Below are positions 144-25,601 of a stretch of DNA of 64,000 nt, piece after piece. Location of the stretch: NCBI GenBank assembly GCA_001001555.1, contig LCKS01000002.1, forward strand, positions 7,074 through 71,073. Reading direction: 5' to 3'. Position 1 is the stretch's first letter, and the number at the start of each line of letters is the position of its first letter. This DNA comes from Candidatus Amesbacteria bacterium GW2011_GWC2_45_19. GTDB lineage: Bacteria; Patescibacteriota; Microgenomatia; CAZETR01; Amesbacteraceae. The notes beneath the pieces are model-generated. The model saw only the letters and a program-made list of their open reading frames with translations. It was not told where the DNA came from and did no database searches. Both the position numbers and the translations under genes were made by a program.

Positions 144-1238
144 TTGTCAATGCTCATCGGAATTGATGCCAACGAGGCCAATTTAACCCCCAACTTAGTG
201 GGCATAAATGAGTATGCTTTTAATTTGCTATGGGCGATTAGCAATTTGCAAACAGAACATAAGTTTGTAATTTATCTGAAAACTCCGCCTCGGAAAACGC
301 TCCCACCTGAAAGGTGGGATTGGAAATACCGGGTCATTCCGGCTCCCTTATTTTGGACCCAAACCAGATTGCCGTTTGATCTATTTTTCCACCAACCCCG
401 CCCCGATGTCTTCTTCAGCATGACCCACTACGCACCACGTTTTTCACCCATCCCCACGGTCGTGGCCATTATGGATTTGGGATTCCTGCGGACTCCGGAA
501 CAATTTACTCCCAAAGACTTTAATCAATTAAAGAGCTGGACCGGATACTCCGTCAAGAACGCCGCCAAAATAATCGCCATTTCCCAATACACAAAGCAGG
601 ATATTATCAAGAATTATCACCGTAATCCAAAAGACATCATAGTTACTCTTCTGGGTTACAACACCAAGCTCTTTAAGCTAGCTCACAAGCCCCCTAAGCC
701 TTATATACTATTTTTAAGCAGTCTCAAACCGAGCAAAAATGTGGAGGGCCTCATTCGCGCTTTCCATCAACTTGGTACTCAGCACTTAGCACTTAGCACT
801 AAACTGGTCATCGCCGGCAAAAAGGCCTGGCTGTACGGCCAAATATTTGCTTTAGTTAAACGGCTGGGTCTGGAGGACAGGGTTAAATTTACCGGCTTCG
901 TGGACGAAGCCGCTAAAGTGACTCTCATGCAGGAAGCTAGCGCCTATGTCCTGCCTAGTTTTCATGAAGGATTTGGCATTCCGGTATTGGAAGCCATGGC
1001 TTGTGGTACACCTGTCGTTATTTCCCAAGTGGCTAGCCTACCGGAAGTTGCCGGCAATGCCGGAATCTATGTCGATCCTTATTCTCCGGCCAGTATCGCG
1101 GATGGAATAAAAACGGCCATCGGACCAAAACGGGAAGAATTTGTGCACGCAGGCCTAAAGAGAGTAAAATTATTCAGCTGGGCCAAATGCGCCCAACTCA
1201 CCCTAACATGTTTAGAGACCGCAACGGCAGACCGTTAA
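144..1238 (+). CDS. glycosyltransferase family 1 (GT4)
   Basis: 364-aa ORF; C-terminal EGFGIPVLEAMACGTPVV motif typical of GT4 retaining glycosyltransferases. Confidence 0.8.
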   Translation: MSMLIGIDANEANLTPNLVGINEYAFNLLWAISNLQTEHKFVIYLKTPPRKTLPPERWDWKYRVIPAPLFWTQTRLPFDLFFHQPRPDVFFSMTHYAPRFSPIPTVVAIMDLGFLRTPEQFTPKDFNQLKSWTGYSVKNAAKIIAISQYTKQDIIKNYHRNPKDIIVTLLGYNTKLFKLAHKPPKPYILFLSSLKPSKNVEGLIRAFHQLGTQHLALSTKLVIAGKKAWLYGQIFALVKRLGLEDRVKFTGFVDEAAKVTLMQEASAYVLPSFHEGFGIPVLEAMACGTPVVISQVASLPEVAGNAGIYVDPYSPASIADGIKTAIGPKREEFVHAGLKRVKLFSWAKCAQLTLTCLETATADR

Positions 1239-3511: not shown

Positions 3512-4851
3512 TCCGCCGTTTTCAATATCTTTTCCTTGGCTTGCTCCTGGTCTTGGGGTTTGTAGTCCGCCTTTACAAAATCACCAACCCCATTGCCGAT
3601 TGGCAGTCCTGGCGCCAGGCAGATACCTCCGCCGTCACCCGCAACTGGGTGAAAAACGGCGTAGACGTTCTCACTCCCCGTTACGATGATTTTTCCGACG
3701 TCTCCGGCCGTGGTCTATTTAACCCCAACGGTTACCGTTTCACCGAATTCCCCCTCTTTAATCTAATCCATTATTTCCTCTATTCTCTATTATCTAATTT
3801 CTATTCTCTAGAACTAGTGGGTCGTTTGACCTCTATTCTGGCCACGCTCGTCTCCGCCGCTCTCCTTTTCTTTTTGGCTCGCCGCCATTCCACCTCGGAG
3901 GTGGCCTGGCTAACTACGGCCATCTTTCTCTTTCTGCCCTACAACATTTATTTTACCCGCGTTATCTTACCAGATCCTCTGATGGTCACCTTGGTTTTGG
4001 CGGCTCTTTTAGCCCAACCTTCTTCGCGCTTGCTGACTTGGATCTTTGGTTCTCTGGCCGTCCTGGTTAAACCCACCGCCATTTTTTTCCTCTTGCCCTT
4101 GCTCAAAGACTTTTGGCTTTTTGCCAGCCTGCTTTTACCCTTTGGCCTGTGGCGCATTTGGGAGCACCGTTCTCCCGAGGGCATTCCCGCCAGCCTGTGG
4201 CTGTTAAACGGCAATGGCATCCGCTTCCGCCCCGCCTGGTTTAGATGGCTGTTTGGCGAGAGGCTGGGGGATATGATTCTGGGTCAGTGGGGGATTTTTC
4301 CCTTCTTACTGGGGCTTTTTCAGGCCAATTCCTATTGGCTCACCTGGGCCGCCGGGGCTCTGCTGTACTTAATCGTTTTTGCCACCGGCAACATCCAGCA
4401 TGATTATTACCAACTCCCTCTTATTCCTATAGTTTCCGTTTTGGTGGCCCTGGGGGCAATTCACTTCAGTACCACCCTGGCCAAAAAAGCCGTCATGGCT
4501 TTCTGCGTCCTGCTGATGCTCGGCTTGGCTTGGTATGACATCAAAGGGGATTATCAGGTTAACAATTGGCCCATCGTCCGCGCCGGCCTGGCCGCGGATA
4601 AACTTTTGCCCAAAAATGCCATCGTCGTCGCCCCTTACAACGGAGACACCGCTTTCCTGTACCAGACCAACCGCCGGGGATTTCCTAATTTGTCCTTACC
4701 CATCAAGGATTTGCGCGACCGCTTCGGCGCCCAGTATTATGTTTCGGTCAATTATGATGATCAAACCAATGCCATTATGAAAAAATATACAGTTCTTGCG
4801 CAGACTCCCGAATATGTCATCATTCAGCTCGTTGAGCCGATCCGCCCATGA
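3508..4851 (+). CDS. ArnT/PMT-like (GT83/GT39) membrane glycosyltransferase
   Basis: N-terminal region (VVRLYKITNPIADWQSWRQADTSAVTRNW) plus many TM segments resembles 4-amino-arabinose/dolichyl-phosphate-mannose transferase family; C-terminal soluble domain. Confidence 0.55.
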   Translation: MIRRFQYLFLGLLLVLGFVVRLYKITNPIADWQSWRQADTSAVTRNWVKNGVDVLTPRYDDFSDVSGRGLFNPNGYRFTEFPLFNLIHYFLYSLLSNFYSLELVGRLTSILATLVSAALLFFLARRHSTSEVAWLTTAIFLFLPYNIYFTRVILPDPLMVTLVLAALLAQPSSRLLTWIFGSLAVLVKPTAIFFLLPLLKDFWLFASLLLPFGLWRIWEHRSPEGIPASLWLLNGNGIRFRPAWFRWLFGERLGDMILGQWGIFPFLLGLFQANSYWLTWAAGALLYLIVFATGNIQHDYYQLPLIPIVSVLVALGAIHFSTTLAKKAVMAFCVLLMLGLAWYDIKGDYQVNNWPIVRAGLAADKLLPKNAIVVAPYNGDTAFLYQTNRRGFPNLSLPIKDLRDRFGAQYYVSVNYDDQTNAIMKKYTVLAQTPEYVIIQLVEPIRP

Positions 4852-6047
4852 AGATCCTGATGCTCCTGCCGTATTTGCCTTACCCTCCGTCAGAGGGCGG
4901 TCAAGTCCGTTCCTACAAACTCATTAAGTTGTTGTCTAGAAAGCACACCATTACTTTAGTTTGTTTTTCCCGCCAGCATAATACTCAAGACCAAATCAGT
5001 CATATGAAACAATTTTGCCGTAAAGTCATAGTTATTGAACGGGGAAAGACTTGGACTCTGGCAAATATCTTGCGCACCGGTTTTTCTCCCTATCCTTTTC
5101 TCGTCTCCATTTATTATTCTCCCCAAATTAAACAGGTCCTCCAGGAAGAGCTGCAAAGCGGCCAATACGATTTAATTCACGCGGAAATGTCATATACCCT
5201 GCCGTACCTCCCTCCTCATAACCTGCCCATTATTTTGGTCGAGCAGACTATCATGTCCCGGATATTTGGCCACCAGGCCAACACCGACAAGCGCTTGTGG
5301 TTCAGGCCGTTTATGTGGATCGACGTAGCCAAAATGCGTTTTTGGGAACAATACTTTTGGAGGAGAGTCAGCCGGGTAGTTACGGTTTCCGCCGAAGACG
5401 CCAAAGTTATCCAAAAGATAATCCCGGGCTTAAGAGTCGACGTAGTGCCTAATGGAGTAGGGGAGGATGTCAGCAATTTGCCCAAAAAACCTCATTATAA
5501 TCACCGCATTTTATATATGGGTAATTATAAATGGATTCAAAATTGGGAAGCGGCAGAACTGCTGGCCAAAAAGGTTTTTCCTCTGATTAAAAAAGCTATC
5601 CCCACCGCCAGGCTGATCATCGCCGGCCAATTCCCTACTTCTGAAGTCAAAGCCCTCAAAACTTCAGGAGTGGAAATTCTGGAACTCAAGGATTCCGACA
5701 CGCAGGGAGTGGTCAACGCCTATCTTGACTCCGGTCTGTTTGTGGCTCCCATGTATGCCCCGGGCGGCACCAGGCTGAAAATACTGGCAGCTATGGCAGC
5801 CATGATCCCGGTTGTCACCACCCCGGTTGGGGCCGAAGGATATGGAGCGGTTGACGGCGGATCAATTATTATCGGCACCACCCCGGAAGACATTGCCAAT
5901 AAATCCATCCAGGTTTTACAGAATAAAAAGATGTATACCCAGATCGCCAATAAAGCCAGACACCTAGTGGATACCAAATTCTCCTGGGAGCCGATTGCCC
6001 AAAAGCTGGAAAGCATATATGAAGACCTTGTCCATCATCATTCTTAG
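4848..6047 (+). CDS. glycosyltransferase family 1 (GT4)
   Basis: 399-aa ORF; GT4-like C-terminal domain (FVAPMYAPGGTRLKILAAMAAMIPVVTT). Confidence 0.7.
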   Translation: MKILMLLPYLPYPPSEGGQVRSYKLIKLLSRKHTITLVCFSRQHNTQDQISHMKQFCRKVIVIERGKTWTLANILRTGFSPYPFLVSIYYSPQIKQVLQEELQSGQYDLIHAEMSYTLPYLPPHNLPIILVEQTIMSRIFGHQANTDKRLWFRPFMWIDVAKMRFWEQYFWRRVSRVVTVSAEDAKVIQKIIPGLRVDVVPNGVGEDVSNLPKKPHYNHRILYMGNYKWIQNWEAAELLAKKVFPLIKKAIPTARLIIAGQFPTSEVKALKTSGVEILELKDSDTQGVVNAYLDSGLFVAPMYAPGGTRLKILAAMAAMIPVVTTPVGAEGYGAVDGGSIIIGTTPEDIANKSIQVLQNKKMYTQIANKARHLVDTKFSWEPIAQKLESIYEDLVHHHS

Positions 6048-13191: not shown

Positions 13192-13258
13192 TAATTATTT
13201 GTTAAATACAACGGTCGTGAAATTTGACAAATAATAATGAAAAGAAAATAATAAATCA

Positions 13259-13804
13259 GTGAATAAAAGAAAAGTAACTGTTGGAGGAATTCTAAAGTTG
13301 ATAAACGACGCTGGAGAAATCTTTTTACCTCTGACCAGGAAAGGAACATATAGACAATTGTACTCACCTCGGATCTTGAGTCTGGAGGATTATTTTCCAT
13401 CTGAAATAAAAAGAGTGGCCAGCAGATTAATCCGTAAGGGACATGTGCAAAAAGAAGAAACTTCCGATGGTTGGATAATAAAAATTACTAATAAAGGAAA
13501 GAACGAGATATTAAAATTCAGACTGGAAGAATTTAAACCCAAAAAAGATAAATGGGACGGATTATGGCGACTGGTATTTTTTGACATAGAAGAGGTCAAT
13601 AGGAAGAAAAGAGACATGCTACGGAAATATTTAAAGAAACTGGGACTCAAACAAATGCAGGAAAGTGTATGGGTTGGCCCATTTGATGTAAGTTCTGAAG
13701 TCAAATACTTACGCGAGGTATTGGACGTTCCTCACGAGGTAAAAATTGGGGTGATGAAAGAGTTGGAAAACGCCGAAGATTTAAAAGGATGGTTTGAACT
13801 ATGA
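13259..13804 (+). CDS. hypothetical regulator-like protein with Cas2/PaaX-C-like ferredoxin-fold C-terminal domain
   Basis: WDGLWRLVFFDIEE...KYLKKLGLKQMQESVWVGPFD matches the VapD/Cas2/PaaX-C type fold pattern. Flanked by 45-bp direct repeats (see findings). Confidence 0.35.
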   Translation: MNKRKVTVGGILKLINDAGEIFLPLTRKGTYRQLYSPRILSLEDYFPSEIKRVASRLIRKGHVQKEETSDGWIIKITNKGKNEILKFRLEEFKPKKDKWDGLWRLVFFDIEEVNRKKRDMLRKYLKKLGLKQMQESVWVGPFDVSSEVKYLREVLDVPHEVKIGVMKELENAEDLKGWFEL

Positions 13805-13879
13805 TATTTGTTAAATTCAACGGTCGTGATGAATGACAAATATTATGTGAGATGGAGTTTTTGTAGTAAACTTAAAGTC

Positions 13880-17128: not shown

Positions 17129-18762
17129 ACCGGCGCCTTTCTGTAATTCAGGCAATTTTTATTCTTTTTTCTTTGGGTATTGTCCTGCGTTTGGGCTATT
17201 GGCAAATTGTCAAAGCGGCAGATCTAGCCGCCGAGGCAGCTTGGCAAAGACAAAGTTTTCTGGAAATTCCCAGTCCCCGGGGAGCCATTTTGAGTTCGGA
17301 CGGTTTTCCTCTGGTCACCAATCAGGAAGCCTACTTATTTTATGTTAATCCCCGGCAGTTTATTTTTTCCGAAAAGCTAAGCCAATTGTTACCTGCTTCC
17401 GCCAGTGCCCGGCTGGCCAATATTCCTGCTAATTTGGGTTGGTTTCTCATCGCCCGTCACTTACCGGTTTCTCTCCGCGATCAAATCCAAAGCTTGAAGT
17501 TGGACGCTATCGGTTTTGAACCCGATCCCAGCCGTCTCTATCCCGAAGCCAGCTCCAGCGCCCACCTCCTGGGATTTGTGGGTCAGGATTCCGCCGGCCG
17601 TCCTCAAGGCTACTTTGGTCTGGAAGGATATTATAATCGGCAACTCACCGGCCTTCCCGGTAAATTAGTTCAGGAAAAAGACGCTCTCAACCGGCCAATT
17701 TTAATCGGTACTTCAAACTTACTGCCTCCCCAGCCCGGCAGCGCCTTAACGACCTCGATCAACCGCACTCTGCAGTTTATTGCATATCAAAAACTGGCGG
17801 CTGCCCTGACCAGATACGGCGCTGTCTCTGGTACAGTTTCAATTATGGAACCATCTACCGGCCGGATTTTGGCCATGGTCAGCTTGCCTAACTACGACCC
17901 TTCTGATTTTGGCAGGTTCGATCAACAAATTTACAAAAACCCCATTATTTCCGACGCCTACGAACCGGGATCAATTTTTAAAACTGTGGTCATGGCGGCG
18001 GCCCTGGACGCCCAAGCCGTCCAGCCGGACACAGTATGCGATATCTGTACCGGCCCGGTAGCCGTCTCCGACTACGTTATTAAAACCTGGAACGACAAGT
18101 ACTATCCTAAAAGCACCATGACCGAGGTCATCCAACATTCAGACAACGTAGGCATGGTTTTTGTCAGCCGCCGCCTGGGAAAGCGCAAACTGATTAGCTA
18201 CTTGAAAAAATTCGGAGTTGGGCAACTGACCGGTGTGGATTTGCAGGAAGAAAGTTCACCCCAACTCCGGCCCGAATCGGCCTGGATGGATATTGATCCG
18301 GCTACGGCATCATTCGGTCAGGGCATTGCCGTCACTCCTTTGCAGATGCTGCGGGCTGTCTCCGTTATAGCTAACCGTGGACTTTTGCCCAAACCTCAAG
18401 TTGTGGACAAAATTAATAATAAAGCGATCCTTCCCTCGCCGCCGACCCAGGTCATTTCCTCAATGGCTGCCGCCCAAATGGCCTTGATGATGGTTAACGC
18501 CGTGGATCTTGGAGAAGCCAAATGGGCCAAGCCAAAGGGGTTCAGTATCGCCGGAAAAACCGGTACCGCCCAAATCCCGGTTTCCGGTCACTATGACGCA
18601 GATAAAACCATCGCCTCGTTTGTGGGTTTTGCTCCGGCAGATCAGCCTAAGTTTGCCATGCTGATTACTTTGCGCGAGCCCAAATCTTCCCCTTGGGGAA
18701 GTGAAACCGCCGCCCCTTTGTGGTTTGATATCGCTCGTGAGGTATTCCGTTTGCTAAAATGA
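17104..18762 (+). CDS. ftsI: peptidoglycan D,D-transpeptidase FtsI (class B PBP)
   Basis: SxxK (GSIFKT), SxN (HSDNVG) and KTGT motifs; N-terminal TM and dimerisation domain. Confidence 0.9.
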   Translation: MDSGPKTMNRRLSVIQAIFILFSLGIVLRLGYWQIVKAADLAAEAAWQRQSFLEIPSPRGAILSSDGFPLVTNQEAYLFYVNPRQFIFSEKLSQLLPASASARLANIPANLGWFLIARHLPVSLRDQIQSLKLDAIGFEPDPSRLYPEASSSAHLLGFVGQDSAGRPQGYFGLEGYYNRQLTGLPGKLVQEKDALNRPILIGTSNLLPPQPGSALTTSINRTLQFIAYQKLAAALTRYGAVSGTVSIMEPSTGRILAMVSLPNYDPSDFGRFDQQIYKNPIISDAYEPGSIFKTVVMAAALDAQAVQPDTVCDICTGPVAVSDYVIKTWNDKYYPKSTMTEVIQHSDNVGMVFVSRRLGKRKLISYLKKFGVGQLTGVDLQEESSPQLRPESAWMDIDPATASFGQGIAVTPLQMLRAVSVIANRGLLPKPQVVDKINNKAILPSPPTQVISSMAAAQMALMMVNAVDLGEAKWAKPKGFSIAGKTGTAQIPVSGHYDADKTIASFVGFAPADQPKFAMLITLREPKSSPWGSETAAPLWFDIAREVFRLLK

Positions 18763-18850
18763 AACCAATGTCCCGTTTCCACACTATCTCTTTCCGCCAT
18801 GCTTGGATAAGTACTGTCATTATTGCTGTTATTATCTTCATCCCTAAAAT

Positions 18851-19888
18851 ATGGCGCTTTATTTAGGCATTTTAATTTTTTCGTTTATTGTTACCAGTAT
18901 TGCCATCGTCCCTTTCATTGATTATCTCTATCGTCTGCGTTTCACCAGGAGAGACGAACGGGCGGACATAACAGCCACTGATACCCCGGAATTCCGCAAA
19001 TTACACCAACTACATAGCAAAAAAGTCGGCACTCCCATCGGCGGGGGAGTACTTATTATCACTCTCGTTACTCTTCTTTACGCCTTACTTTTTCCCATTA
19101 TTAGCCGCCTGGGAGTGTATATCACCTCGGCTTTTCCCATTAAAGAGGAACTAAATATTATTTTCTTCACTTTTATATCTTTCGGCCTGCTGGGCCTCTA
19201 CGACGACATTATGAAAATATTCGGCTTTGCCAAAACCGGTTTTTTTGGCTTGCGGGTCAGACACAAACTGATTATTCAAATTCTTCTTTCCGTCACTATC
19301 GCCAGCATGCTCTTTTTTAACCTGCGTGTTCAAATTGTCAACATCCCCAACATTGGCATCTTAAATTTGGGATGGCTGTATATCCCCCTGGCCGCCTTTT
19401 TAATCACTGCTTTTACTAACTCCTTTGACTTCACTGACGGGTTGGACGGCCTGTCCTGCGGCGCCCTCCTGATCTGTCTGCTGGCCTTTTGGGCTCTAGC
19501 CGTGGCCTCTTTGGACACGCCGCTCTCAATTTTTATCGCCCTCTGGATTGGCGGTTTGATTGCCTTTTTGTACTTTAATGTCTACCCGGCCCGTATTTGG
19601 CTGGGTAATGCCGGGGGGCTGGCTTTTGGCGCTACCCTGGCAGTGGTAGGGTTGCTTTTGGGGAAAATAGTCGCCTTACTGGTCATCGGGGGCATATTTA
19701 TAGTTGAAGGTGGTAGCAGTTTTTTGCAAATTATGTCCCGTAAGCTGTTCAACCGCCGTGTCTTTCCCATTGCCCCTATCCATCACCTGTTGCAGGTCCG
19801 GGGTTGGGAAGAACCCAAAATTGTCATGCGGGCCTGGTTGGCCGGTATTATGTTAGCCATTTTTGGCCTGTGGCTCGCTCAGCTTTAA
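18851..19888 (+). CDS. mraY: phospho-N-acetylmuramoyl-pentapeptide transferase MraY
   Basis: NSFDFTDGLDGL motif and 10-TM topology. Confidence 0.9.
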   Translation: MALYLGILIFSFIVTSIAIVPFIDYLYRLRFTRRDERADITATDTPEFRKLHQLHSKKVGTPIGGGVLIITLVTLLYALLFPIISRLGVYITSAFPIKEELNIIFFTFISFGLLGLYDDIMKIFGFAKTGFFGLRVRHKLIIQILLSVTIASMLFFNLRVQIVNIPNIGILNLGWLYIPLAAFLITAFTNSFDFTDGLDGLSCGALLICLLAFWALAVASLDTPLSIFIALWIGGLIAFLYFNVYPARIWLGNAGGLAFGATLAVVGLLLGKIVALLVIGGIFIVEGGSSFLQIMSRKLFNRRVFPIAPIHHLLQVRGWEEPKIVMRAWLAGIMLAIFGLWLAQL

Positions 19889-20928
19889 CCATCACTCTCC
19901 TGGGTTTAGGACTCACCATCTTTGGTCTGCTGATGGTCGGCAGTTCATCGGTGGTAGATGCCGCCCGGGATTTTGGCGACAAGTGGTATTACCTCAAACT
20001 CCAATCCGGCTGGGCGGTCATGGGACTAGCCGGATTTTTTTTAATCTCCCGTTGGCCATATCAGAAACTGGAAAAACTCTCCGTCTCTTTATTGCTTATT
20101 ACTTTATTACTTCTTGTTCTCGTTCTCATCCCCGGTCTGGGATCCAAACTTCTGGGAGCGCGCCGCTGGTTAAGTTTAGGCTTTTTCAGTTTTCAACCCG
20201 CAGAGCTGGCTAAATTAACCCTGGCCATTTATTTTTCCAGTTTATTGAAAAAAGCCACCCGTTTCCGGCCGTTTATTATAGTTTTGGGGTTAACCGGCCT
20301 TTTAATTATGTTGGAACCGGATTTGGGCACAACTTTGATTTTGACCGGCAGCAGCTTACTCACCTATTTTGGCAGCGGAGGCCAACTGCGCTATCTGGGT
20401 CTGATAATTCCAGTTTTTATCATTGCCGCGGCCGCTCTCGTCTTTTTTTCTCCATACCGCCTTGACCGCCTGAAAACCTTTTTTGATTATTCCCGTGATC
20501 CCCTGGGGTCTTCTTATCACATCCGCCAGGTTCTCTTGAGCCTGGGATCGGGCGGCGTGTTTGGAGTGGGCTTAGGCCAATCCAAGCAAAAATATGAATT
20601 CCTGCCGGAAGCCACTACCGACTCCATTTTTGCCGTCATTGGTGAGGAACTGGGGTTGGTAGGGGGGTTGGTCGTCATCGCCGCGTTTCTGGTCTTTATG
20701 CGCCAAGGCTTCTTGATTGCTGCCTCCGCCCCCGATCAATTCGGGGCCAACCTGGTTCTGGCCCTGACCTCCTGGATTTCTCTGCAGGCCCTGGTTAATT
20801 TAGGCGCCATGGTAGCTATCATCCCCTTAACCGGCGTCCCCCTGCCCTTCATCTCCTACGGCGGCTCCTCCCTGGTCCTGGTTTTGCTGGCATCAGGTAT
20901 ACTAGTTAATATTGCCAAACAGAAGTGA
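19804..20928 (+). CDS. ftsW: SEDS-family peptidoglycan glycosyltransferase FtsW
   Basis: LEPDLGTTLIL and PLTGVPLPFISYGGSSL motifs, dcw position. ATG 19804 overlaps mraY by 85 nt (no alternative ATG before the first TM). Confidence 0.85.
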   Translation: MGRTQNCHAGLVGRYYVSHFWPVARSALTITLLGLGLTIFGLLMVGSSSVVDAARDFGDKWYYLKLQSGWAVMGLAGFFLISRWPYQKLEKLSVSLLLITLLLLVLVLIPGLGSKLLGARRWLSLGFFSFQPAELAKLTLAIYFSSLLKKATRFRPFIIVLGLTGLLIMLEPDLGTTLILTGSSLLTYFGSGGQLRYLGLIIPVFIIAAAALVFFSPYRLDRLKTFFDYSRDPLGSSYHIRQVLLSLGSGGVFGVGLGQSKQKYEFLPEATTDSIFAVIGEELGLVGGLVVIAAFLVFMRQGFLIAASAPDQFGANLVLALTSWISLQALVNLGAMVAIIPLTGVPLPFISYGGSSLVLVLLASGILVNIAKQK

Positions 20929-20946
20929 TATAATAAGTGCATTATT

Positions 20947-21186
20947 ATGAAAGTCAAGAAACTCGATTATCTTATTGAGTTAGTCTACGATAAAGCCTAT
21001 AAGGGTTATGTCGCTGAAGTAGTTAATCTCTATGGTTGTATGTCTCAGGGTAAAACTAAAAAGGAAGCATTAACAAACGTCGACAAAGCCATTAAAGCTT
21101 ATATGGAAGCATTAACCAAAGCTGATAAGGATACGGAATTTGTTCAACGAAGAGTCAACACTCCCGTTCCTCTGGCTTATGCCTAA
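20947..21186 (+). CDS. hicB: HicB-family antitoxin
   Basis: GYVAEVVNLYGCMSQGKTKKEALTNVDKAIKAYMEAL matches the HicB/UPF0150 RNase-H-like fold antitoxin family. Confidence 0.75.
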   Translation: MKVKKLDYLIELVYDKAYKGYVAEVVNLYGCMSQGKTKKEALTNVDKAIKAYMEALTKADKDTEFVQRRVNTPVPLAYA

Positions 21187-21400
21187 GCTGACGAATATTT
21201 CAGGCAGGAATGCAGTTAAAGCTTTTATCAAATTTGGTTACTTGCATGTACACACTTCTGGCGACCATGCAATCCTGCAAAAATCCGGATCTCCTAGCTT
21301 ATCTATACCTTTACACAGGGAAGTGGCTCCATTTCTCTTAAAATCTCAGGTCAAAAAAGCAGGTATTTCAATTGATGATTTCATTAAGGAGTTGAAGTAA
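21179..21400 (+). CDS. hicA: HicA-family mRNA interferase toxin
   Basis: AVKAFIKFGYLHVHTSGDHAILQKSG...IPLHREV...QVKKAGISIDDFIKEL is a YcfA/HicA-like dsRBD toxin. ORF opens at 21140; ATG 21179 overlaps hicB stop by 8 nt. Confidence 0.75.
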   Translation: MPKLTNISGRNAVKAFIKFGYLHVHTSGDHAILQKSGSPSLSIPLHREVAPFLLKSQVKKAGISIDDFIKELK

Positions 21401-21408
21401 AAGAATCG

Positions 21409-21472
21409 GTTCCTCCCTGGTCCTGATCCTCCTGGCCTCCGGCATTCTCGTCAACACCGCCCGCTGCTCATA
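21409..21472 (+). repeat. relic duplicate of the ftsW 3' end (in-frame ...SSLVLILLASGILVNTARCS*)
   Basis: 15-nt identical core TCCTCCCTGGTCCTG and amino-acid-level colinearity with ftsW 20863-20928; lies immediately after the hicBA insert. Confidence 0.7.
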
Positions 21473-21476
21473 GAAA

Positions 21477-21513
21477 ATTGACAAATAAAATGCGACCGCA
21501 TTATTTTTGTCAA
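21477..21513. terminator. 17-bp-arm inverted repeat TTGACAAATAAAATGCG-ac-CGCATTATTTTTGTCAA (terminator and/or operator upstream of murG)
   Basis: Near-perfect palindrome seen in the sequence, followed by a TGnTACAAT-like -10 before the murG GTG start. Confidence 0.5.
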
Positions 21514-21550
21514 ATAAAAGCATCATGGTCAATAATGTTACAATGAACTT

Positions 21551-22615
21551 GTGAAAACGTTGGTGTTTACCGGGGGGCATCATACGAGCGCTTTGGAAGT
21601 GGCCAAGGCGCTGAAAGACAAAGGATGGCAGATAGTTTGGTTCGGCCACCGCCACTCCATGTGGGAAGACAAGTTAGATTCTGCCGAATATCATGAAGTA
21701 ACAACCGCAGATATTAAATTTATTGATCTGAAAGCCGGCAAATTCTACCGGACTTTTAACCCTCTCAAACTCATCTCTATCCCATACGGCTTTTTTCAGG
21801 CCCTGTTACAGTTACTGTTACTGCGCCCAAACGGCATCGTCTCCTTCGGCGGCTACCTGGCCGTCCCTACCATTCTGGCCGGCTGGCTGCTGGGAATCCC
21901 GTCCATTACCCATGAGCAAACGGTTGTCTCCGGCTGGGCCAATAAATTTATTTCTCTCTTTGTTAAGAAAATAGCTCTGGCCTGGCCAGACAGCACCCGG
22001 CGCTACCCGCGCAGTAAATCCGTGGTTATCGGCCTGCCTCTCCGCGACGAAATAATCAGAATTAAAAAATATAATAGCTTCGCTGGAAAATTAAAAATTA
22101 AAAATTTGGTCTATATCACAGGAGGAAAACAAGGATCACAAACTATTAATAAGGCAGTTTTTGCCGCGCTTCCTAAATTGCTGGCCAGTTATCAGGTTGT
22201 ACATCAAACCGGAAATTTAGATTATTCCCCGGCCCGGTCCCATATTAAGGATGGATATGAGTGTTTCGCCTTTGACTCGGCTAAAGCCATATCTGCTCTG
22301 GCTCAAGCCGCGGTGGTCGTCAGCCGGGCCGGCGCCCACATTGTTTACGAATTGGGATATCTGGGAATTCCGTGTGTGTTAATTCCCATTCCGTGGGCCT
22401 CCCACAACGAACAACTCCTCAATGCCCAGATACTGGAGGGCAATCACCAAGCCGTTATTTTACCGGAATCTCAATTAACCCCCCAATCACTGATTTCTTC
22501 AATTAAACAAGCCATGCACTTAAAACCCCGCTCCCTGGATCTGCCCACTGACGCTGCCGAAAAACTGGTTCAAATTACAGCTAGCCTCTTTACAACCGCT
22601 GACCGTCAGAAGTAG
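21551..22615 (+). CDS. murG: undecaprenyldiphospho-muramoylpentapeptide beta-N-acetylglucosaminyltransferase MurG
   Basis: N-terminal LVFTGGHHTSALEVAKAL and GT28 C-terminal domain (ITGGKQGSQ); GTG start. Confidence 0.85.
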   Translation: MKTLVFTGGHHTSALEVAKALKDKGWQIVWFGHRHSMWEDKLDSAEYHEVTTADIKFIDLKAGKFYRTFNPLKLISIPYGFFQALLQLLLLRPNGIVSFGGYLAVPTILAGWLLGIPSITHEQTVVSGWANKFISLFVKKIALAWPDSTRRYPRSKSVVIGLPLRDEIIRIKKYNSFAGKLKIKNLVYITGGKQGSQTINKAVFAALPKLLASYQVVHQTGNLDYSPARSHIKDGYECFAFDSAKAISALAQAAVVVSRAGAHIVYELGYLGIPCVLIPIPWASHNEQLLNAQILEGNHQAVILPESQLTPQSLISSIKQAMHLKPRSLDLPTDAAEKLVQITASLFTTADRQK

Positions 22616-25063: not shown

Positions 25064-25306
25064 ATGGTGAAAGAACTTATTTCCGGATTTTTTCATAAGC
25101 CAGATGGATCTGACGCGGACATTTTAGCCGCAAGCGCCCGTCGGAGCTTGTACTTATTAGCGTTCTCCATATCGATCCCAGCAATGTTCGTCGCAATGGT
25201 TGCCAAACCAGAGGCAGCGGCATTTTTAGTCAGATCTGAAGGTGTTTTTGCTATTGCTTTAAGCTTTGCATATATGATAGTCAGGCCTGGCAAACCAAGT
25301 TCATGA
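25064..25306 (+). CDS. hypothetical small membrane protein
   Basis: 80-aa ORF with two hydrophobic segments; followed by a 10-bp-stem hairpin (25325-25362). Confidence 0.25.
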   Translation: MVKELISGFFHKPDGSDADILAASARRSLYLLAFSISIPAMFVAMVAKPEAAAFLVRSEGVFAIALSFAYMIVRPGKPSS

Positions 25307-25349
25307 TATTTCTTTTAAAGAAGGGACACTCCTTTAAGGTTAGTCCTTT

Positions 25350-25601
25350 TTGGAGTGTCCCGAAAGTATTTACAAATTAAAGCGGTCGTATAAAAGAGAA
25401 CTTTATGCATGGGGTTTCGCTCTGGTTATAATCGCCACACCATTTATCTTAATAGCTAGGCCTGAAATATCAGGCTACACGCTTCAAAGAGATATTATAG
25501 CCATGATTGTCTTAGGACTTTTGTACCATCATCCGGGTTCTCAATTTGAGGAATGGGAAAGACTTGTCGTGAACAAAATTCAAGGTAAAAAACCTGTGTA
25601 A
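25350..25601 (+). CDS. hypothetical small membrane protein
   Basis: 83-aa ORF, two predicted TM helices. Confidence 0.25.
   Translation: MECPESIYKLKRSYKRELYAWGFALVIIATPFILIARPEISGYTLQRDIIAMIVLGLLYHHPGSQFEEWERLVVNKIQGKKPV

Follow-up and report, generated by a model that had tools for sequence, protein, structure and literature searches.

A hicBA-like toxin-antitoxin cassette at the 3′ end of ftsW in an Amesbacteria genome, and displaced ftsW ends at the ftsW-murG junction

The window analyzed here is a 64-kb stretch of DNA (64,000 nucleotides) whose host belongs to the groundwater Amesbacteria (Microgenomates/CPR). In the region of interest the order is ftsW, hicB, hicA, a second in-frame copy of the ftsW end (21 codons), a palindrome, and murG. 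The ftsW gene (19870-20928, + strand; 352 aa by the public gene call) belongs to an open reading frame that opens at 19804 and ends at 20928, matches the FtsW family (PF01098, E 3e-96), and encodes a protein identical to P0001, annotated as FtsW of Candidatus Amesbacteria; the 374-aa translation of the full reading frame lacks an exact database match because the public gene call starts later. The murG gene (21551-22615, + strand) matches PF03033 and PF04101. The insert between them holds hicB and hicA as its only genes with family support, and an Rfam search of 20700-21700 returned no RNA family. A preliminary description of this DNA had placed each of these features at, or within 1 nt of, the positions found here, and the AT-rich insert that it reported is evident in the GC content of the cassette, which is 36.8% compared with 51.3% for the ftsW body and 45.7% for the whole window.

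The hicA gene (21179-21400, + strand) overlaps hicB by 8 nt and encodes a 73-aa protein that matches PF07927 over the entire profile (positions 1-58 of 58) with 35.8 bits, above the cut-off of 27, and an E value of 8.6e-9. Its predicted structure (pLDDT 93) matches the dsRBD-like α-β-β-β-α fold of solved HicA proteins, the top Foldseek matches being 1whz (TMq/TMt 0.80/0.83) and chain 5yrz_B of a Streptococcus pneumoniae toxin-antitoxin complex (0.69/0.85), with further matches to Burkholderia pseudomallei HicAB (6g26_E/F), 4c26, and Escherichia coli HicAB (6hpb_A); the top four have TMq values of 0.68-0.80, TMt values of 0.81-0.85, and an rmsd of 1.3-1.7 Å. A plain sequence search of the PDB with HicA gave no match, and the single PDB match of the HicA family profile was dismissed as spurious. 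Residues G28-D29-H30 and H46 are invariant among 21 family members, with the two histidines as candidate equivalents of the catalytic His of characterized HicA proteins. The hicB-like gene (20947-21186, + strand) encodes a 79-aa protein with only a putative N-terminal HicB domain, matching PF15919 at E 2.8e-5 with 24.7 bits, just below the 27-bit cut-off. Its family profile matches the PDB HicB entry 6g1c at E 0.016, its homologues carry the NCBI name HicB family, and a plain sequence search of the PDB gave marginal matches only (E 0.13); the AlphaFold model is poor (pLDDT 48) and unusable for a fold search. No C-terminal DNA-binding domain of the RHH or HTH type, as would serve autoregulation, is present in the 79 residues, and the family alignment ends at about residue 79. 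Single-domain HicB-like proteins exist, and absence of the C-terminal domain does not exclude antitoxin function. The assignment in the preliminary description is borne out for hicA, which is above the family cut-off, and probable for hicB, which is just below it.

A promoter-like site lies at 20906-20934 (+ strand), with a -35 element TTAATA within the ftsW codons V-N-I and an extended -10 element TGATATAAT that overlaps the ftsW stop codon. It scores 10 of 12 consensus matches with the TG present, and a TATAAT box is conserved at the same position upstream of hicB in the homologous loci L087, L088, L089, and L178, which suggests that the site may serve as the promoter of hicBA. The two genes are best explained as a type II toxin-antitoxin module with its own predicted promoter, in which HicA would be the toxin. 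Characterized HicAB systems (E. coli 6hpb, B. pseudomallei 6g26, and S. pneumoniae HicBA 5yrz) share with this module the PF07927 match and fold of HicA, the probable type of the HicB N-terminal domain, and the arrangement as two small overlapping genes with a predicted promoter of their own. The sequences are only remotely similar to the characterized ones, and unlike in those systems the antitoxin gene comes first and encodes a 79-aa protein without a C-terminal DNA-binding domain.

The limits of the conserved module (20925-21405, + strand) are set by homology to other genomes. It recurs with 70-83% DNA identity in unrelated contexts of other Microgenomates, and the homology is confined to 20925-21405: blastn identities are 82.8% with L087 (20925-21405), 76% with L088 (20945-21399), and 70% with L089. 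The hicB-hicA pair is kept as a unit in these three loci, and in L178 a hicA reading frame follows hicB, though only hicB was called as a gene. None of the retrieved contexts (L087-L093, L178, and L179) has hicBA next to ftsW, and in L089 the homologue lies 25 nt after a tRNA-Arg gene. The left boundary falls within the last ftsW codon and stop, which read AAG TGA in the window and AGT TAG in L099, and the right junction reads hicA-TAA AAGAAT|CGGT. Significant flanking repeats accompany the cassettes of the window and of L178 (52-nt direct repeats, about 83% identical; 0 of 500 shuffles reach the score) and are not found for L087, L088, and L089. Elsewhere in the window, a gene of 181 aa is flanked by repeats at 13196-13236 and 13805-13845 (41 nt, 85%). 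The right repeat begins 0-6 nt past the stop codon of the cargo in the hicBA cassettes of the window and L178 and in the window cassette at 13196-13845.

The 3′ end of ftsW is present twice. The left copy (20862-20928, + strand) is the working end of the gene and consists of CGGC, a 15-nt core at 20866-20880 (TCCTCCCTGGTCCTG), and an AT-rich replacement tail at 20881-20928 (38% GC) that contains GGTATACTAGTTAATATTGCCAAACAG and supplies the last 16 ftsW codons, encoding VLLASGILVNIAKQK*. The right copy (21407-21473, + strand) consists of CGGT, the core at 21411-21425, and a GC-rich tail (62% GC); it lacks a start codon, is read in a frame that differs from that of hicA, and ends in a stop codon at 21471-21473. 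In translation the functional end reads ...GGSSLVLVLLASGILVNIAKQK and the right copy ...GSSLVLILLASGILVNTARCS. The core occurs exactly twice in the 64 kb, at 20866 and 21411, with no match of any kind in 100 shuffles, and is part of a direct repeat of 55 nt (20862-20916 and 21407-21461) with 75% identity and a spacing of 545, in agreement with the second, GC-richer copy of the ftsW end noted previously. Identity between the copies is 18/19 over CGGY and the core and 24/48 thereafter, and so abrupt a drop indicates a breakpoint rather than gradual decay. A profile built from native ftsW tails matches the right copy at E 6.6e-11, and its second matches over 1.42 Mb (the window and the loci compared) lie solely downstream of ftsW. 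Native tails of the genus have 52-69% GC, and the right tail shares 33-36 of 48 nt with them, compared with only 24 with the working tail. The working tail is identical to that of L099 at 42 of 48 nt and to that of low-GC L119 at 35 of 48, and among the 120 closest FtsW proteins none apart from the window's own ends in ...KQK. Base composition and these alignments support the view that the working, AT-rich end is foreign and that the GC-rich copy is the native end, displaced as a relic. Within the genus, no part of ftsW is better conserved in DNA than the block at 20830-20880 (+ strand; gene nt 961-1011), where mean pairwise identity among six genus members is 93-98% compared with 59-90% elsewhere in the gene. 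The breakpoint coincides with the 3′ edge of this block, which is the presumed homologous anchor.

Four nucleotides past the relic stop is an imperfect palindrome (21478-21513, with no strand assigned), the 17-bp-arm palindrome of the preliminary description, whose 17-nt arms are 88% complementary and which folds with -12.4 kcal/mol (z = -5.3). It has no T-run, a terminator scan scores none, and its arm TTGACAAATAAAA is not significant as an over-represented motif in the window. The palindrome probably represents the hairpin that natively follows ftsW, or else belongs to the promoter region of murG. A promoter-like region for murG (21507-21544, + strand) comprises TTGTCA-18-AATAAT and a TACAAT box at 21539-21544, 6 nt before the GTG start. 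The motif TA(T/C)AATGAA(C/T)TTGTGAAAA is shared with L098, and in L007, L094, and L099 a related TATAAT box stands before the start of murG. The murG start is predicted to be near-leaderless.

An empty site exists in L098, in which ftsW ends ...GILVNIARQS* and is separated from murG by a spacer of 79 nt, similar to the 77 nt between the relic stop and murG in the window. Together with the GC-rich composition that the relic shares with native tails, this supports the earlier proposal of an insertion at the ftsW 3′ end that left the native end behind. The empty site had been predicted in advance, and the prediction was right as to its existence and the position of a hairpin, which in L098 lies 11 nt after the ftsW stop, and wrong as to the ending (NIARQS instead of NTARCS) and the hairpin sequence, which is a different one. 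Every other close relative carries its own insert between ftsW and murG (L007, L094, L095/L100, L096, and L099, and also L101 and L102; 1.2-1.9 kb), and in most of the more distant Microgenomates ftsW abuts murG. The junction is an insertion hot spot of the clade that is not particular to hicBA, and the earlier picture of a tightly packed operon in which a toxin-antitoxin module is unusual is misleading for this clade. Among the products of the inserts are methyltransferases, a deaminase, an XRE-HTH protein, AdoMetDC, an aldo-keto reductase, and DUF3800, beside unknown proteins. A search of the window cassette and of insert ORFs from L094, L099, L101-L103, L110, L119, and L154 revealed no integrase, recombinase, or transposase, and the ORFs sampled from L127 and L135 likewise hold no integrase or recombinase domain.

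Relics of the ftsW tail lie downstream of ftsW in six independent genomes (the window, L094, L095/L100, L096, L099, and L119), compared with five marginal tail matches (E 0.002-0.006) among about 150 control loci. L094 has three of them, each ending in a stop codon, between four cassettes, and L095/L100, L096, L099, and L119 have one each. Event by event, the left boundaries of the relics lie 67, 48, 39, 36, 33, and 30 nt before the stop and hence define no common crossover core. The first relic of L094 is identical to the working tail at 44 of 48 nt (92%) and the third is frameshifted. Upstream, L094 and L098 share 99.8% identity, and from murG on they share 98%; between these parts L094 has a 1.9-kb array where L098 has a 76-nt spacer. 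A GC-rich hairpin (AATCCCACCTnnnAGGTGGGATT) directly adjoins the relics of L094, L095/L100, and L096 on their left side, and the cargo genes beside the shared hairpin in L096 and L007 are not homologous. An AT-rich tail like that of the window precedes different cargo, a module of 66 and 84 aa, in L099 and L119, whose cassettes are only about 70% identical in DNA and hence were not recently transferred between them; sequence comparison shows their relics to be conserved about as well as, or better than, the cassette in between. As L099 has the same tail before a different cassette, hicBA itself probably did not bring the whole AT-rich tail, and the tail probably predates hicBA. Thus, of the suggestion that the insert supplied a replacement C-terminus, the foreign, AT-rich nature of the tail stands, and hicBA as the bringer of all of it probably does not.

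Taken together, these data are best explained, with somewhat better than even confidence, by a homology-anchored insertion that displaced the native ftsW 3′ end, in which a low-GC foreign segment with hicBA would have recombined into the end of the gene. The pre-insertion allele would have consisted of the ftsW body, the core, GATCCTCCTGGCC...TCATAG, and the palindrome. Incoming DNA may first have paired with the chromosome at the most conserved ftsW block, with a crossover within or beside the 15-nt core at 20866-20880, and would have brought its own AT-rich version of the last 16 codons, such that FtsW stays intact (...NIAKQK*). The other end would then have joined just upstream of the core. 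This would have displaced the native tail downstream, where it forms the non-coding relic at 21407-21473 and is followed by the original hairpin and by murG with its predicted promoter. The route may have been either a single crossover of circular DNA bearing a short ftsW fragment, for which the circle junction would read ...GAGTTGAAGTAAAAGAATCGGTTCCTCCCTGGTCCTGGTTTTGCTGG, or homology-facilitated illegitimate recombination (HFIR) of linear DNA; both the mechanism and the order of events are proposed from the arrangement of the sequences. It does not look as if an element-encoded integrase were at work. Many different small cassettes have accumulated at the same spot in the genus, sometimes serially, and, as the comparison of L094 with L098 supports, ordinary double crossovers in ftsW and murG probably exchange whole arrays between strains; the junction would tolerate inserts because murG has its own predicted promoter right at its start. 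Several observations count against homology-anchored insertion. The identical core of 15 nt (18/19 with its flank) is a short substrate for exchange that depends on RecA, none of the retrieved contexts is a donor with hicBA adjoining an AT-rich ftsW tail, the conservation of the L099 and L119 relics is odd for neutral DNA, and right repeats that begin 0-6 nt past the cargo stops are tidier than random illegitimate joining predicts. The same AT-rich tail before differing cassettes and the shared hairpin could, moreover, point to a site-specific system.

Precedents for such an exchange come from C-terminal displacement arrays, which are known from rhs, cdiA, and Vibrio cholerae T6SS effector-immunity loci, and in which incoming DNA pairs with the conserved upstream part of a gene and adds a new 3′ end with cargo, the old 3′ end is pushed downstream, and repeated events lead to arrays of orphaned ends (PMC2935791, PMC5361080). 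HFIR has been described along with these arrays for T6SS and Rhs loci, and the mechanism proposed for them is homology-facilitated and illegitimate, with no integrase (PMC5361080). The ftsW locus shares with them the upstream anchor, with a breakpoint directly 3′ of the best-conserved 50 nt of ftsW DNA, the new 3′ end with cargo, and the displaced ends in series. It differs in that the gene affected is an essential one with a housekeeping role, the exchange leaves the encoded peptide essentially unchanged instead of adding a new toxin tip, cargo and target gene are unrelated, and the displaced pieces are 30-67 nt long and non-functional. When a circle with a partial homologous segment recombines with its target by one crossover, the insert ends up between two copies of that segment (PMC3240628), and the product of such insertion-duplication matches the ftsW locus in its two homologous copies, each a hybrid of chromosome and donor. 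The experimental duplications involved 109-950 bp of identical DNA (PMC3240628), unlike the shared segment of 67 nt here, of which about 19 nt are near-identical. Natural competence is stated for Saccharibacteria in the abstract of the preprint version of a Cell 2023 paper on their genetics (PMC10187176).

How the CPR/Patescibacteria, with their tiny genomes, gain accessory genes is little understood, and the ftsW locus provides a sequence-level footprint of gene acquisition, with a foreign end, a displaced native end, an empty allele, and arrays in sister genomes, at a site within an essential division and cell-wall cluster and without recognizable mobile-element machinery. If homology-anchored recombination is the correct account, conserved housekeeping genes may act as landing pads for flexible genes including toxin-antitoxin modules, and C-terminal displacement, so far a feature of polymorphic toxin loci, would extend to a core gene. 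The locus can be used as a marker of strain-level variation and recombination in groundwater Amesbacteria, and the ftsW-murG junction suggests itself as a natural neutral insertion site for genetics.

Site-specific integration is a less likely account, to which perhaps one chance in several may be given. Here a trans-acting recombinase would insert small cassettes, or a larger element that has since decayed, using an attB in the ftsW 3′ end or the hairpin and an attP with an ftsW-tail mimic in each element, and tandem accretion would give rise to the arrays. SCCmec at rlmH/orfX and tRNA-targeting islands insert in the 3′ end of a conserved gene, restore it, and accumulate in tandem. The ftsW locus resembles them in the reuse of one gene end with insertion in the last codons, the restored frame, the flanking direct repeats, and the serial arrays split by repeats. 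The gradient in L094, where the newest-looking relic is nearest ftsW and the third is frameshifted, accords with accretion, and the similar AT-rich tails that the window, L099, and the distant L119 have in front of differing cassettes, the nearly identical hairpin abutting relics behind three unrelated cargo genes, and the position of the L089 homologue close to tRNA-Arg would also fit. However, no insert examined holds a recombinase gene, the inserts are only 0.5-1 kb, the variable repeat boundaries leave no common core, and members of the hicBA cassette family occupy many unrelated sites, three of five without a significant flanking repeat. In addition, what separates L094 from L098 is the exchange of a whole array rather than the gain of a single cassette.

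Duplication in situ is improbable. It would have produced both copies by a target-site duplication of about 50-70 nt or a tandem duplication, and the copies would then have diverged, the working one through synonymous drift toward AT-rich codons. Long imperfect repeats do flank hicBA in L178 and the 181-aa gene of the window, and the first L094 relic is 92% identical to the working tail. The window copies, however, are identical in the core and then 50% identical, with an abrupt, one-sided shift from 62% to 38% GC while the remainder of ftsW has 51%, the AT-rich tail is common to L099 and resembles that of low-GC L119, and neither a transposase nor terminal inverted repeats are present. An IS element or transposon was rejected for the same want of a transposase and of inverted repeats at the cassette ends, together with the diverged repeat of 55-67 nt.

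About equally improbable is a reading in which the ftsW 3′ end and hairpin form, in Amesbacteria, a dedicated platform for cassette acquisition that is integron-like but has no integrase linked to it. Cassettes with a promoter and an ftsW-tail mimic of their own would be inserted beside this essential division gene, either by a recombinase acting in trans or by a mechanism directed by the hairpin. Older cassettes and relics would be pushed toward murG, and the relics and hairpins, unexpectedly well conserved, would be functional recombination sites rather than debris. As in integron arrays, small cassettes of one or two genes are ordered at one fixed chromosomal point, older cassettes appear further from the insertion point, and some cassette ends bear hairpin-forming sequences. 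In contrast to integrons, the loci show no intI, attI, or attC consensus, what repeats is a piece of a host gene, and the cassettes have their own predicted promoters. No integrase lies at or in the junction of the loci examined, and the cassette ends share no attC-like consensus, unlike in an integron proper. The view that hicBA is ancestral at this site was rejected because an empty site exists and the inserts are so varied.

An assembly artefact, with contigs of co-occurring strains misjoined into a chimera, is very improbable: the public MAG contig L180 does end inside the core (...TCCTCCCTGGTCCT), L008 ends 6 nt before it, and L003 has other local mis-assemblies, but independent assemblies from JGI, ENA, and NCBI, made from different samples with different assemblers, agree exactly across both junctions, in line with the assembly check that had been proposed, and analogous relics occur in five other genomes. 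The 11.8 kb spanning the site are 100% identical in the JGI and ENA contigs, and the same junction is present in an NCBI MAG contig. In the collection, 38 indexed blocks contain the HicA protein and 61 the HicB protein, and the context is identical in all 24 contigs read for each.

In the groundwater population genome of Candidatus Amesbacteria (Microgenomates, CPR/Patescibacteria), the genes are ordered mraZ-rsmH-PBP-mraY-ftsW-[hicB-hicA]-murG-ftsA-ftsZ, with ftsW ending at 20928 and hicB (20947-21186) overlapping hicA (21179-21400) by 8 nt. Mechanical repeat detection identifies a 55-nt direct repeat of 75% identity (20862-20916 and 21407-21461) that contains the 15-nt core TCCTCCCTGGTCCTG at 20866 and 21411; this core has no other occurrence in 64 kb, and 0 of 100 shuffles contain one. 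The second copy of the ftsW end claimed in the preliminary description is present after hicA, with its identical core at 21411 and in frame to a stop. This relic of the native 3′ end translates as GSSLVLILLASGILVNTARCS followed by TAG at 21471-21473, and the working ftsW ends in GGSSLVLVLLASGILVNIAKQK and a stop. The 17-bp-arm palindrome described after the relic was also found, at 21478-21513, with 17-nt arms that are 88% complementary and a fold of -12.4 kcal/mol (z = -5.3). The GC content is 36.8% in the hicBA cassette, 51.3% in the ftsW body and 45.7% in the window.

An assembly artefact is discounted by independent contigs. A JGI contig of 185 kb (Ga0209211_10000103) and a groundwater contig from ENA each match the 11.8 kb around the hicBA site at 100% identity, and both junctions are also present in the NCBI MAG contig LCOO01000011 (GW2011_GWA2_47_70; loci L003/L006). 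The exact proteins are indexed in 38 (HicA) and 61 (HicB) public-collection blocks, with the same context in 24 of 24 contigs read for each; as several contigs share this context, the arrangement is not an assembly artefact. LCOO01000011 itself lacks ~120 nt in the PBP gene (about 18687-18807) and ~107 nt in ftsW (about 20674-20781), shortening the gene calls to 521 aa (PBP) and 274 aa (FtsW); the JGI and ENA contigs are intact, and the two local deletions are probably assembly errors. Two public MAG contigs end at the core, L180 from the window's own species at 2510, within the 15 nt, and L008 at 4992, 6 nt short of them, which hints that the assembly graph branches precisely at this breakpoint because the strains differ there.

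The hicBA pair is an ordinary though divergent HicAB-type module. HicA passes the Pfam threshold for PF07927 (35.8 bits against 27), and its predicted structure (pLDDT 93, with a 21-sequence alignment as input) matches the solved HicA-type structures 1whz, 5yrz_B from S. pneumoniae, 6g26 from B. pseudomallei and 6hpb from E. coli (TMq 0.68-0.80 and TMt 0.81-0.85 for the top four matches). HicB, a single-domain protein of 79 aa without a DNA-binding domain, scores slightly below the PF15919 threshold, and its family profile finds HicB 6g1c in the PDB at E 0.016; its structure model was unusable. Hundreds of variants of both proteins with 70-88% identity occur in Amesbacteria, Beckwithbacteria, Gottesmanbacteria and Daviesbacteria, many of them on very short contigs.

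DNA homology with other copies of the module (83% identity in L087, 76% in L088, 70% in L089) is confined to about 20925-21405. On the right the homology ends at the hicA stop; the left boundary, GTGATATAAT, is an extended -10 box in which the TGA doubles as the ftsW stop codon; the promoter-like site TTAATA-17-TGATATAAT spans 20906-20934 with its -35 element within the AT-rich ftsW codons V-N-I. Copies elsewhere (L087, L088, L089, L178, L179) sit at unrelated places, including 3′ of PBP2 within an mreCD-pbp2 cluster (L088) and 25 nt downstream of tRNA-Arg(CCG) (L089, module 3769-4222, tRNA 3671-3743), where a search for a duplicated tRNA end detected none. In L178, from another metagenome and with a HicB 86% identical to that of the window, the module is flanked by a 52-nt intergenic direct repeat (544-595 and 1077-1128, ~83% identity) with a score reached by 0 of 500 shuffles, and its right copy follows the hicA stop codon without a gap. 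The hicB homologues carry TATAAT 6-12 nt ahead of the ATG, and a conserved TA(T/C)AAT box lies ~6 nt upstream of the murG GTG start (window 21539-21553; also L007, L094, L098, L099); from their sequence, these positions suggest that 5′ leaders are very short or lacking.

Across about 160 relatives, ftsW abuts murG in most distant Microgenomates and in other phyla, while in the window's genus all close relatives except L098 carry differing inserts, and the junction is an insertion hot spot in this genus. The cargo comprises a kinase-like gene with a PCMT-type methyltransferase (L007), a remnant of that same kinase-like gene with the methyltransferase (L095/L100), a 259-aa protein with an isochorismatase (L096), five small genes including one deaminase-like (L094), a 66+84-aa pair with an XRE-HTH gene and AdoMet decarboxylase (L099), and other genes in L101-L103, L110, L119 and others. 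Searching both strands of 1.42 Mb with a native-tail profile gives second matches only 3′ of ftsW and on the same strand, in the window, L094, L095/L100, L096, L099 and L119, and relic length varies by event (67, 48, 39, 36, 33 and 30 nt). When about 150 control loci were scanned for self-similarity, just five marginal matches appeared (E 0.002-0.006). In L094, three relics that all reach a stop codon separate four cassettes: 4565-4612, identical to the working tail of L094 at 44 of 48 positions, 5088-5117, and 5584-5617 with a 1-nt deletion.

The empty site predicted for relatives exists in L098 (FtsW 89% identical), where ...GILVNIARQS and a stop are followed by a 79-nt spacer and murG; the distance from relic stop to murG in the window is 77 nt. 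A hairpin occupies the same position in both, and the murG start keeps its TATAAT-N6-GTG; the spacer sequence is otherwise not conserved, and the prediction is borne out only approximately. L094 and L098 are 99.8% identical across 4 kb ending 12 nt ahead of the ftsW stop and 98% identical from murG on, and between these flanks L094 has a 1.9-kb four-cassette array (4059-5986) and L098 a 76-nt empty spacer (5548-5623). None of the three L094 relics matches the native tail of L098, and the difference between the two loci is allele replacement via a double crossover in the conserved flanking genes.

Past the core, the relic tail has 62% GC and shares 33-36 of 48 nt with native tails of genus members, the working tail (20881-20928) has 38% GC and shares 30-33 of 48, and the two match each other at only 24 of 48. 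At the 3′ edge of the core, the two ftsW-end copies drop abruptly from 18/19 identity to 50%, which looks like a recombination breakpoint rather than slow decay. Within the genus, ftsW DNA is best conserved at gene nt 961-1011, directly 5′ of the breakpoint, with a mean identity of 93-98% as compared with 59-90% in the remaining ftsW.

The AT-rich tail is also found ahead of cassettes other than hicBA. In L099, the nearest relative (ftsW DNA 83.5% identical), it precedes a different two-gene cassette, with a 40-nt stretch 97.5% identical to the window and 42 of 48 tail positions matching, and a relic follows at a similar distance. In L119, a 38%-GC Amesbacteria from the same sample with FtsW only 59% identical, a similar tail, also AT-rich, occurs together with a GC-rich relic and a cassette homologous to that of L099; as the two cassettes are only ~70% identical, the arrangement is either old or slow to spread. 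The left boundary of hicBA falls within the final sense codon plus stop of ftsW, which read AAG TGA in the window and AGT TAG in L099. Given this boundary and the tail shared by different cassettes, a two-step history is likely, in which the AT-rich tail would have come by an earlier displacement and hicBA would have been placed behind it by a later exchange. The two-gene L099/L119 module directly after ftsW (5569-6045 and 2521-2916; ~66-70 and ~70-84 aa), conserved between these two distant Amesbacteria, has no match in Pfam and may be a further toxin-antitoxin-like pair.

Homology-anchored insertion with displacement of the native 3′ end is the best-supported model. It could proceed by a Campbell-type single crossover with a DNA circle that carries a short piece of ftsW, a route that experimentally gives an insert between duplicated homologous segments (PMC3240628), or by homology-facilitated illegitimate recombination of linear DNA, as proposed for the orphan-end arrays of rhs loci and of T6SS clusters in V. 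cholerae (PMC5361080, PMC2935791). Recombination between two tail copies around a cassette could free a circle of tail and cassette that could then integrate at the ftsW end in a relative. Ordinary double crossover can also swap whole arrays, as between L094 and L098. Natural competence is reported for Saccharibacteria in the abstract of PMC10187176, the preprint version of a 2023 Cell paper on their genetics. The FtsW peptide is preserved by the replaced tail, and the junction tolerates inserts because murG has its own putative promoter at the start codon. The weak points are the short near-identity (15-19 nt), the missing donor and the tidy junctions.

The rival reading is that a site-specific or other dedicated mechanism inserts cassettes at the ftsW end. 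It is favored by the AT-rich tail common to the different cassettes of the window, L099 and L119, and by a GC-rich hairpin, AATCCCACCTnnnAGGTGGGATT, that recurs almost unchanged just left of the relics after three unrelated cargo genes (L094, L095/L100, L096); this hairpin also lies right after ftsW in the empty site of L098 and is rare elsewhere (10 matches in 177 loci). Further points in its favor are the long flanking repeats and tidy right ends at the L178 hicBA and at a 181-aa gene of the window (13259-13804), which has the same architecture as the hicBA cassette. A 41-nt direct repeat of 85% identity (13196-13236 and 13805-13845), containing the inverted repeat TATTTGTTAA...TTGACAAATA, flanks this gene; its right copy begins directly after the stop, and in each case, the hicBA cassette of the window included, the right repeat begins 0-6 nt past the cargo stop codon. 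No recombinase or transposase domains were found in the insert ORFs examined, and a dedicated cassette-acquisition system appears improbable. The 181-aa gene lies between a putative recO-like gene and a putative class II aminoacyl-tRNA synthetase-like gene, both named from their translations.

Insertion-duplication and C-terminal displacement are already known; no description was found of a CPR essential division gene whose 3′ end had been displaced repeatedly, leaving serial relics, and full-text literature searches on toxin-antitoxin modules within dcw clusters and on HicA in CPR returned nothing relevant.

Copies of the hairpin (A)ATCCCACCTnnnAGGTGGGAT(T) are concentrated at the ftsW-murG junction of relatives, adjoining relics (L094 4541-4555; L095 4333-4347; L096 4898-4912 and 4994-5008; L007 5856-5870; L098 5571-5585; L129 5554-5568), and a perfect copy, CCCACCTGAAAGGTGGG, occurs at window 302-318, apparently within ORF 144-1238. 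Between the PBP gene and mraY, where the window has only an 88-nt gap (18763-18850), close relatives have a gene for diacylglycerol kinase (PF01219; about 1647-2189 in L094-L096), another presence/absence difference within the dcw cluster. Two small ORFs (80 and 83 aa) with hydrophobic-looking translations lie between ftsZ and ileS at 25064-25601.
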